Positions 36,551 through 44,891 of a stretch of 64,000 bases of DNA are shown here, in pieces. This DNA comes from Escherichia coli (lineage in GTDB: Bacteria; Pseudomonadota; Gammaproteobacteria; Enterobacterales; Enterobacteriaceae). The stretch lies in the NCBI RefSeq assembly GCF_003018235.1, contig NZ_CP027437.1. The stretch is one strand, 5' to 3'. The translations under genes and the position numbers were made by a program. The notes beneath the pieces were generated by a model. The model did not search any database. It saw only the letters and a program-made list of their open reading frames with translations, and was not told where the DNA came from. Position 1 is the stretch's first letter. Each line of letters starts with the position of its first letter.

Positions 36551-36977
36551 TTGGTATTTACTTAATGCGTTTGTGAGATCCAGTTCTTGTTGCGCTCCTT
36601 TTATGAGTCATGCCATATAAAGTGACTGGCGCAGGGAGCGCGCAGGGGGCGGCCAATCGCCGCCGCCCCTGCACCCCCGGGCTCTGGCGAACAAAATCGC
36701 CGCTGCGCGGTACCCTCAGCTTATCCCTTGCGGCTACCGGGTCGGGCGCGAGGTAACATCCCTGTAAAACGCGCCCTCAGCCCACATCCATGTGGGCTGC
36801 CCCGGCCTTCAGGGAACGCCTCGGCGATTTTGACGCCACCAACACCGGTGCAGTCTTTCGTTTCAAAGCAAAAACAATTTTTCGATCATATTTAAGCTAC
36901 CACTGAACAAGCCTCATAACTCCATTTGCGCCATCCCTCCCCGCGCGCTAGCATGATATTTCACAAAGGGAGGTCGT

Positions 36978-37772
36978 ATGGATCTGTTGTACCGGGTAAA
37001 AACGCTTTGGGCCGCGCTGCGCGGTAATCATTACACCTGGCCTGCTATCGATATCTCTCTTCCCGGCAATCGCCATTTTCATCTGATTGGCAGTATTCAT
37101 ATGGGCAGCCACGATATGGCTCCCCTGCCCACCCGTTTGCTCAAAAAGCTCAAAAACGCCGATGCGCTGATCGTCGAGGCGGATGTTTCCACCAGCGATA
37201 CGCCTTTTGCTAATTTGCCTGCCTGCGAGGCGCTGGAAGAGCGCATTAGCGAGGAGCAACTCCAAAATCTGCAGCACATTAGCCAGGAGATGGGCATTTC
37301 TCCGTCGCTCTTTTCTACCCAACCGCTGTGGCAAATCGCGATGGTTCTTCAGGCGACGCAGGCACAAAAACTGGGGCTGCGGGCAGAATACGGTATCGAT
37401 TACCAGCTATTGCAGGCGGCGAAGCAACAACATAAACCCGTGATTGAACTGGAAGGGGCAGAAAACCAGATTGCCATGTTGCTCCAGCTCCCTGACAACG
37501 GACTAGCGCTGCTGGACGATACGCTGACCCACTGGCACACCAATGCACGGTTGCTGCAACAAATGATGAGCTGGTGGCTGAATGCGCCGCCGCAAAATAA
37601 TGAAATAACGCTGCCTAATACGTTCAGTCAATCGCTGTACGATGTGCTGATGCATCAGCGAAATCTCGCCTGGCGGGACAAATTATGCGCCATGCCGCCG
37701 GGGCGCTATGTGGTCGCAGTCGGTGCACTACACCTGTATGGAGAAGGGAATTTGCCGCAGATGTTGCGCTAA
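36978..37772 (+). CDS. ybaP: TraB/GumN-family protein YbaP (264 aa)
   Basis: 264-aa ORF in the conserved position next to chiX and ybaK. Confidence 0.85.
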   Translation: MDLLYRVKTLWAALRGNHYTWPAIDISLPGNRHFHLIGSIHMGSHDMAPLPTRLLKKLKNADALIVEADVSTSDTPFANLPACEALEERISEEQLQNLQHISQEMGISPSLFSTQPLWQIAMVLQATQAQKLGLRAEYGIDYQLLQAAKQQHKPVIELEGAENQIAMLLQLPDNGLALLDDTLTHWHTNARLLQQMMSWWLNAPPQNNEITLPNTFSQSLYDVLMHQRNLAWRDKLCAMPPGRYVVAVGALHLYGEGNLPQMLR

Positions 37773-37854
37773 AAAAATGGCCAATATCGCTATTGGCCCG
37801 TCAAAGAGGAATTTCATATTTTTATTATTATGCCGTCACTTTAAGCGACGGTGT
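37771..37854 (-). ncRNA. chiX: ChiX (MicM/SroB/RybC) Hfq-dependent small RNA
   Basis: Minus-strand sequence ACACCGTCGCTTAAAGTGACGGCATAATAATAAAAATATGAAATTCCTCTTTGACGGGCCAATAGCGATATTGGCCATTTTTTT matches recalled ChiX, including the terminator hairpin and U-tail; located in the ybaP-ybaK spacer as in K-12. Confidence 0.85.
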
Positions 37855-37960
37855 AACTCGATTGTCGCTCAATCTCACCATCCTGCCAATACTCTTAGGC
37901 AAGATGACTCTTTTTTTTGGACCGCCATCAGGCGTATGCTTGCTTCGTTTTTTTGTTTAA

Positions 37961-38455
<495 letters not shown>

Positions 38456-38491: not shown

Positions 38492-40144
38492 TTACTGCCA
38501 GCTCACCTCACCCTTCGGTTCATAAACACTCACATCCAGCGGCGAGCTTTTCTGGATATACGCTTTCAGCACTTCGGCATCAATAAAGCCGGTATTCACA
38601 TAGCCCGGTTTGTTATCAAGGCGCGGATAGCCATCACCGCCGGTGGCATTGAAGTTTAATGTCGCCATGCGGTAAGTTTTCGCCGGATCGACCGGTTCGC
38701 CGTTGATTTTCAGGTCGTTGAGTTTGCCGTCTTTCGCCACAAAGCTAACGTTGGCAAATTGCGGGTAGGCACCTGAATCTGGCTTCATTTGTGCGACGAC
38801 GGTCAGGTAATCAATCACCTCTTTACCGGTCATGTCGGCATACACCACCACATTGCCGAATGGCTGCACTTTCAGCACGTTTTTATAGCTGATATCGCCT
38901 GCTTCGATAGAATCACGAATTCCGCCTCCACTCATCACCGCAAAGTCAGCACCAGTGCGATCCATTTGTGCTGCCAGAATTAACCGCCCCATATTGGTCT
39001 GTACAAAACGCACTTTGTCACGATCGCCTTCCAGACGACCATTGGTTTCGCCTATTTTCACGTCCAGCTGCGCTTTGCCTTTGTTCTGGAACGGCGATAA
39101 CAGCGAGATCATTTGCTGGTTTTCAGCGATTTCAGGAGTGTAAAGCACGCGCTCGCTTTTCCCGTCTTCCCAGGTCACTTTCTTCTTCAGGTTCACCGGA
39201 ATCAGCTGGTAGTTAACCATTTTCATTTCGCCATTACGAAACTCAAAATCAGCCCGTCCCACGTATTTGCCCCACTCATGCGCCTGCACAATCCAGATGC
39301 CGTTTTGTTGATCCGGTTTGCATGGCGTACCCGGCACGTAATCGACCTGTTTTTTGTTTTCTGCCGCCATGCAGACCGGATCTTGCGAGTGACCACCGAC
39401 GATCATCGCCAGCGATCCGGCAGGCAGCGCGCGCGCCATCTCCACATCGCCCGGTGCGTTAGAGCCGTGCTCACCATTGTCGTAATGCCCCATATGGGTC
39501 GCCGCGATAATAATGTCTGGCTTTTCTGTCTGTTGCAGCTCCTGAATCACCAGCTTCGCTTCATCGGCGGGCTTACGGAACTCAATATCGGTGAAGTTTT
39601 CTGGGTTGCCTAACTTCGCTGTGTCATCCGTCGTCAGGCCAATAACGGCAATTTTCAGATCCTGACGCTTAAACAGCGCCCATGGTTTAAACAGGCGCTC
39701 GCCGGTACTTTTCTGGTAGATATTGGCAGAAAGTAACGGGAACTTTGCCCACTTTTCCTGCTGGCGTAATACGGTGAGCGGGTTATCAAATTCATGATTA
39801 CCGATTGCCATCGCATCGTAACCCACCAGATTCATGCCGCGAAAATCAGGTTCGGCATCCTGTAAGTCAGACTCGGGCACGCCAGTGTTAATGTCGCCAC
39901 CGGAAAGTAGCAGCACGCTACCGCCTTCAGCCGCAACCTCTTTGCGGATACCATCCACCAGCGTTTTTTGCGCCGCCAGACCATATTCGCCATATTCATT
40001 GCGCCAAAAATGCCCATGATGATCATTGGTGTGCAGAACTGTAATTTTGTAGGTTTTATCCTGCTCATACGCCAGAGCAGTTTCACTCGCCAGTGTAAAT
40101 GTGGTTAACAGTGCTAATGCCACGCCCCGCTGCAATAATTTCAT
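38492..40144 (-). CDS. ushA: UDP-sugar hydrolase / 5'-nucleotidase UshA (550 aa, periplasmic)
   Basis: Signal peptide, calcineurin-like metallophosphoesterase motifs (GNHEFD) and a C-terminal 5'-nucleotidase domain. Confidence 0.95.
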   Translation of the reverse strand: MKLLQRGVALALLTTFTLASETALAYEQDKTYKITVLHTNDHHGHFWRNEYGEYGLAAQKTLVDGIRKEVAAEGGSVLLLSGGDINTGVPESDLQDAEPDFRGMNLVGYDAMAIGNHEFDNPLTVLRQQEKWAKFPLLSANIYQKSTGERLFKPWALFKRQDLKIAVIGLTTDDTAKLGNPENFTDIEFRKPADEAKLVIQELQQTEKPDIIIAATHMGHYDNGEHGSNAPGDVEMARALPAGSLAMIVGGHSQDPVCMAAENKKQVDYVPGTPCKPDQQNGIWIVQAHEWGKYVGRADFEFRNGEMKMVNYQLIPVNLKKKVTWEDGKSERVLYTPEIAENQQMISLLSPFQNKGKAQLDVKIGETNGRLEGDRDKVRFVQTNMGRLILAAQMDRTGADFAVMSGGGIRDSIEAGDISYKNVLKVQPFGNVVVYADMTGKEVIDYLTVVAQMKPDSGAYPQFANVSFVAKDGKLNDLKINGEPVDPAKTYRMATLNFNATGGDGYPRLDNKPGYVNTGFIDAEVLKAYIQKSSPLDVSVYEPKGEVSWQ

Positions 40145-43496: not shown

Positions 43497-43526
43497 ACGG
43501 TGGTTGCCGGATAATAGGCGCGGATA

Positions 43527-44891
<1,365 letters not shown>

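Follow-up and report, generated by a model that had tools for sequence, protein, structure and literature searches.

A stretch of Escherichia coli DNA of 64,000 nucleotides (contig NZ_CP027437.1 of RefSeq assembly GCF_003018235.1; hereafter, the window) almost certainly carries the chiX gene on its minus strand at positions 37771-37854, encoding a trans-acting, Hfq-dependent class II small RNA (sRNA) of 84 nt with its own sigma-70 promoter and intrinsic terminator. The whole window was scanned with the covariance models of Rfam 15 at their gathering thresholds, and one of the three matches returned was a full-length match to RF00368 (sroB; model positions 1-83 of 83) over exactly this interval. 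Its score was 81.1 bits, in comparison to the curated gathering score of 44 that sets family membership, with E = 2.8e-10 over the whole window, and the match was obtained again in a repeat scan of the sub-region. The initial annotation, made from the letters and their open reading frames, had proposed ChiX at these same coordinates and on this strand, and the covariance-model alignment it named as a check thus came out well above the gathering score. SroB, RybC, MicM, and ChiX are several names for one RNA (PMC4098024; PMC3384567). The window copy is an ordinary, intact representative of this well-studied sRNA; it is already known, with nothing new about it. No observation speaks against this assignment. 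RNA nucleotide n corresponds throughout to window position 37855-n.

The identification is matched by the curated record of E. coli K-12 MG1655, where the ncRNA chiX (b4585) occupies 84 nt at 507204-507287 between ybaK and ybaP. The two copies are identical at 83 of 84 nt, including the 5' hairpin, the seed, and the terminator, and the promoter is identical as well; an alignment of 251 nt of window and K-12 sequence contained only two differences, one inside ybaP and the other inside ChiX. According to both the window's ORFs and the RefSeq annotation, ChiX lies in its defining place between ybaP (TraB/GumN family protein; 36978-37772, plus strand), with which it is convergent, and ybaK (Cys-tRNA(Pro) deacylase; 37976-38455, plus strand), from which it is divergent, with ushA (38492-40144, minus strand) beyond ybaK. 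The same flanking genes are given for ChiX in a published table (PMC3384567). The RNA ends 2 nt inside the ybaP stop codon (37770-37772), as it also does in K-12, and the window layout is the K-12 layout in reverse orientation. The placement in the ybaP-ybaK spacer made by the initial annotation is therefore right in that the RNA lies between both genes, but not for these last 2 nt. The K-12 neighborhood differs one gene away, where it carries ybaQ, a gene absent from the window strain.

The 501-bp region was found in 5422 of 5426 complete E. coli genomes; the exact 84-nt allele of the window was present in 382 of the 5422, and the remainder were mostly one mismatch away. Two of the 5422 matches were on records classed as plasmids, which may be captured chromosome fragments or misassigned replicons. 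In strain 7/2, annotated by PGAP and 100% identical at this locus, there was no feature between ybaK and ybaP, and among the matches listed for the 84-nt allele search only ybaP was annotated under the match, with no chiX. The claim that annotation misses this gene was thus borne out in the records examined, chiX being listed only in the curated K-12 record. ChiX is consequently present in ~99.9% of complete E. coli genomes, yet featureless in the pipeline-annotated RefSeq records examined, so that ORF- or annotation-only analyses would see the spacer as empty and could misassign its reads to the ybaP 3' UTR. One RIL-seq pipeline labels ChiX reads 'ybaP.EST3UTR' (PMC10954441).

A consensus scan identified a sigma-70-type promoter upstream of the RNA (37861-37889, minus strand), consisting of a -35 hexamer TTGGCA (37889-37884), a 17-nt spacer, and a -10 hexamer GACAAT (37866-37861), with 9 of 12 consensus matches. 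Transcription is predicted to start at 37854, 7 nt past the -10 box. TTGGCA and the block TTGAGCGACAAT hardly varied among 48 loci of the Enterobacteriaceae type and kept a constant distance to the RNA 5' end, in contrast to the first 20 nt of ChiX itself, which were variable. Expression of this copy would be expected from what is published on its nearly identical counterparts in K-12 and Salmonella. A further block upstream of the -35 element, TCTTGCGCAAT (37890-37904, minus strand), is conserved in most Enterobacteriaceae, with TCTTGCCTAAG in Escherichia; it may serve as an UP element or as a binding site for a regulator.

The minimum-free-energy fold of the 84-nt RNA had an energy of -23.9 kcal/mol (z = -3.8), a value equaled by none of 200 dinucleotide shuffles. 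A 5' hairpin at nt 4-22 (37833-37851), with an 8-bp stem and a 3-nt loop, is separated by 34 open nt (nt 23-56) from a terminator hairpin (nt 57-76), after which the RNA ends in A and seven U residues. Four consecutive AAN triplets (AAU AAU AAA AAU), a predicted Hfq distal-face motif, were counted at nt 26-37 (37818-37829). ChiX is described as a class II sRNA with four AAN motifs, which contact the distal face of Hfq while the U tail contacts the proximal face (PMC7987339), and its U tail as 7 nt long and single-stranded (10.1101/2021.04.25.441314). Both elements of the class II sequence signature, the (AAN)n tract and the 3' U tail, are found in the window RNA, and its near-identity to the studied K-12 and Salmonella gene suggests that it, too, binds Hfq and depends on it.

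The Rho-independent terminator (37771-37798, minus strand), described as intact in the initial annotation, was recovered by both the fold and a terminator scan. Its GC-rich hairpin (37798-37779) has 8 pairs and a 4-nt loop and is followed by ATTTTTTT, that is, A and U7 at 37778-37771, so that an intrinsic terminator with the long U tail AUUUUUUU is present on the RNA strand. Because the ybaP stop codon abuts this hairpin and overlaps the RNA by 2 nt, one could suppose that the hairpin and its A/T run merely terminate the convergent ybaP transcript, with no separate RNA gene. We consider this extremely improbable. Only on the minus strand is the hairpin followed by the T-run; on the plus strand CGTCAAAG comes after it, and the scan found no plus-strand terminator at the hairpin. 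A bare terminator would also leave unexplained a conserved promoter 84 nt upstream, a covarying 5' hairpin, an invariant seed, and a full-length Rfam match.

Homologues of chiX were collected by scanning one genome per species for AAATTCCTCTTTGACNGGCC, which yielded at least 120 loci. The matches listed were all from Enterobacterales except for one metagenome-assembled genome labeled 'Proteobacteria bacterium' and one match in 'Candidatus Lindowbacteria' (L062); the genera among them include Escherichia, Citrobacter, Enterobacter, Klebsiella, Serratia, Yersinia, Pantoea, Erwinia, Rahnella, Hafnia, and Proteus. The L062 sequence fits the search pattern but has neither a terminator nor a model match and was rejected as a chance occurrence. 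With L062 dropped, a ybaP homologue was found within 1.5 kb in 115 of the 119 listed loci, a ybaK homologue in 109, and both in 107. At the two Proteus loci (L067 and L093), homologues of both genes were missing from the surrounding 1.5 kb, so that the gene occupies another neighborhood in Proteus; these ChiX-like matches scored 45.6 and 39.6 bits, respectively, with the covariance model described next.

In a MAFFT alignment of 109 homologues, loop-length differences shifted the 5' arm of the first hairpin out of its register, and this alignment was not used for counting pairs. We therefore built a covariance model, R1, from 12 unambiguous Escherichia and Citrobacter sequences and used it for realignment. 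R1 matched 94 of 95 sources, the sole non-match being L062, and in the window it gave a single match, at 37771-37854, with 104.9 bits. For 92 distinct Enterobacterales sequences, 94.8% of the cells were standard pairs, in comparison to 21-48% when the partners were slid by 1-3 columns. Double changes were seen in 11 of 16 pairs, and the observed covariation score was reached in none of 500 shuffles. In the same 92 sequences, the 5' hairpin had compensatory double changes at all 8 of its pairs, with 89% of the cells paired, and the terminator stem was 99.3% paired with 3 covarying pairs. An alignment fitted to the structure of its model favors pairing, but the low pairing in the slid controls, together with the diversity of pair types, makes the covariation signal robust. 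The search pattern fixes the seed, so seed invariance within this homologue set is circular; the covariation evidence from the hairpins is unaffected.

The conservation of the spacer could in principle be that of a small protein encoded on the plus strand. The initial annotation had stated that the spacer has no ORF, which needs qualification: two mechanical plus-strand ORFs, 37685-37960 and 37708-37992 (91 and 94 aa), traverse it antisense to ChiX, and stop codons interrupt only one of the three antisense frames across the 84 nt of the window copy. Both ORFs, however, begin inside ybaP in other reading frames, neither has a significant Pfam match (best E = 0.12), and neither shows conservation. 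When the antisense frames were anchored at the seed, each was open in only 63-82 of 117 listed loci, with none maintained; a looser test that asked only for any open frame was passed by 101 of 108 loci and is non-discriminating. Insertions and deletions in the 5' part have lengths not divisible by three, and the substitutions are base-pair compensatory, with no codon periodicity. We regard a coding explanation as having next to no chance of being correct, and the substance of the earlier statement stands.

The initial annotation had named the seed that pairs with chiP and chb targets as a further check, and this seed is present and single-stranded. The conserved sequence AAAUUCCUCUUUGAC occupies nt 41-55, is unpaired in both the minimum-free-energy and the centroid folds, and agrees with the upper-case Rfam consensus; the seed UCCUCUUUGACGGG (nt 45-58; 37797-37810, minus strand) is single-stranded save for its last two bases. 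Both targets lie outside the window, and pairing was tested against the K-12 chiP and chbBC sequences; these are nearly ubiquitous in the species, with 5424 of the 5426 complete E. coli genomes containing the chiP leader and 5404 containing the chbBC spacer. ChiX nt 45-56 (UCCUCUUUGACG) are a perfect 12-nt complement of chiP positions -19 to -8, covering the Shine-Dalgarno sequence AGAGGA, and nt 47-58 are likewise complementary to the chbB-chbC spacer at all 12 positions, so that the same ChiX segment is used in both matches. In a permutation test on the longest perfect complement, one of at least 12 nt arose in 7 of 5000 shuffled chiP targets and 19 of 5000 shuffled chbBC targets. This test replaced RNAduplex energies, for which full-length ChiX and chiP gave a z of only -2.1 by a method that permits long interior loops and ignores intramolecular structure.

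These matches are consistent with the published mechanism, in which ChiX continuously represses chiP when chitosugars are absent and enhances Rho-dependent termination within chiP, until the chitobiose-induced chbB-chbC spacer triggers ChiX decay and relieves chiP, with ChiZ as a second sponge (PMC4098024; PMC7815308). In the window strain, the single-stranded seed would pair across the Shine-Dalgarno region of the mRNA for the chitoporin ChiP, blocking its translation and promoting premature Rho-dependent termination, and chiP would for this reason be silent without chitosugars. Chitobiose would induce the chb operon, whose chbB-chbC spacer would pair with the same seed as a decoy and lead to ChiX degradation, an effect that ChiZ, which originates in the chiP 5' UTR, would share. 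The loss of ChiX would then relieve chiP repression. That the regulatory outcome for this copy is chiP repression we infer from the K-12 and Salmonella literature.

The sole difference from K-12 within ChiX, A37U, is an A in K-12 and a U in the window (37818; RNA nt 37). It falls inside the Hfq distal-face tract, and the exact window allele is carried by just those 382 of 5422 genomes; the gene might thus be ChiX in an allele impaired through altered Hfq binding or stability. We think this very unlikely. The changed base is the N of the fourth AAN triplet, a position that tolerates any base (PMC7987339), and the count of four consecutive triplets is unchanged. The bases of the AAN tract vary in other genera, E. 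albertii and two other loci share the AAAAAUAUG version, and the U37 allele is fixed in several hundred genomes. Because the substitution sits at this free position, A37U should leave Hfq binding unaffected, and we continue to regard the window allele as an intact ChiX.

The arrangement with ybaP raises one further possibility. The ChiX terminator does not have the layout of a terminator on the plus strand, and the first terminator-like site on that strand past the ybaP stop codon is a weak one at 37929-37942, beyond the entire chiX gene; therefore, ybaP transcripts may read through. A ybaP 3' UTR extended in this way would be perfectly antisense to all 84 nt of ChiX and could conceivably titrate ChiX or interfere with chiX transcription, an idea that we derive from the sequence layout and rate as improbable. 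If true, the ybaP 3' UTR would be a possible third ChiX sponge beside chbBC and ChiZ. Nothing on such an antisense role was found in the literature searched.

Several neighboring features of the window are more unusual than the ChiX copy itself. The copA-ybaP spacer (36551-36977; core at about 36590-36890) lacks ybaQ and the three REP elements present in K-12 and instead holds a dispersed repeat, some 300 bp long, that is GC-rich and has many hairpins. Approximately 270 bp of this repeat occur in 5425 of 5426 E. coli genomes, at 2-8 copies per genome (median 4), and are never annotated in them; the complete arrangement of the window spacer was found in only 346 genomes. K-12 carries a copy with ~95% identity in the lysO-aqpZ interval. 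The two copies each matched the Rfam family TwoAYGGAY (RF01731) over its full length but below threshold, with 31.5 and 30.6 bits in comparison to a gathering score of 43; the window match was considered as part of the ChiX finding and set aside as a separate element. An IS110-family insertion sequence, IS621, lies at about 43504-44830 between ybaL and gsk, adjoining a REP element, with its transposase ORF at 43637-44617 on the minus strand; its identity to annotated IS621 copies is 99.7%, and the related strain 7/2 carries IS1397 at this site. The non-coding end of IS621 encodes a 'bridge RNA', which would be expected at about 44618-44810 on the minus strand, and the Rfam scan of the whole window returned no family at that site. 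Directly flanking IS621 is a match to naRNA4 (CssrE, RF02564; 44811-44888, minus strand; 81.1 bits), a REP/BIME-type double hairpin. Inside dnaX (52811-52875, minus strand), the scan recovered the textbook DnaX element for programmed -1 ribosomal frameshifting (RF00382; 96.8 bits), which PGAP also annotates in strain 7/2. Between cueR and ybaT, an insertion (about 3700-27100, minus strand) holds type I secretion genes and a giant adhesin gene of siiEA/BapA-like type. The adhesin gene is ~20.8 kb in strain 7/2, to which the window copy is only ~96% identical in comparison to 98-99% for the flanking housekeeping genes, and its internal repeats are at 72-75% identity.

The scientific weight of the finding is small: ChiX is among the best-characterized enterobacterial sRNAs, and the window holds a near-identical allele at its normal locus. 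With the ChiX/MicM RNAs of other Enterobacterales (Salmonella, Citrobacter, Enterobacter, Klebsiella, Serratia, Yersinia, Pantoea, and Erwinia) it has in common the seed, the terminator, the AU-rich linker, and the overall architecture, and mostly also the ybaK/ybaP synteny, whereas the sequence and loop length of the 5' hairpin vary by genus with compensatory changes. With MgrR and other class II sRNAs it shares a 3' U tail that engages the Hfq proximal face and an AAN/ARN tract that engages the distal face (PMC7987339), but their sequences, seeds, and targets are unrelated, and they have no homology to ChiX.
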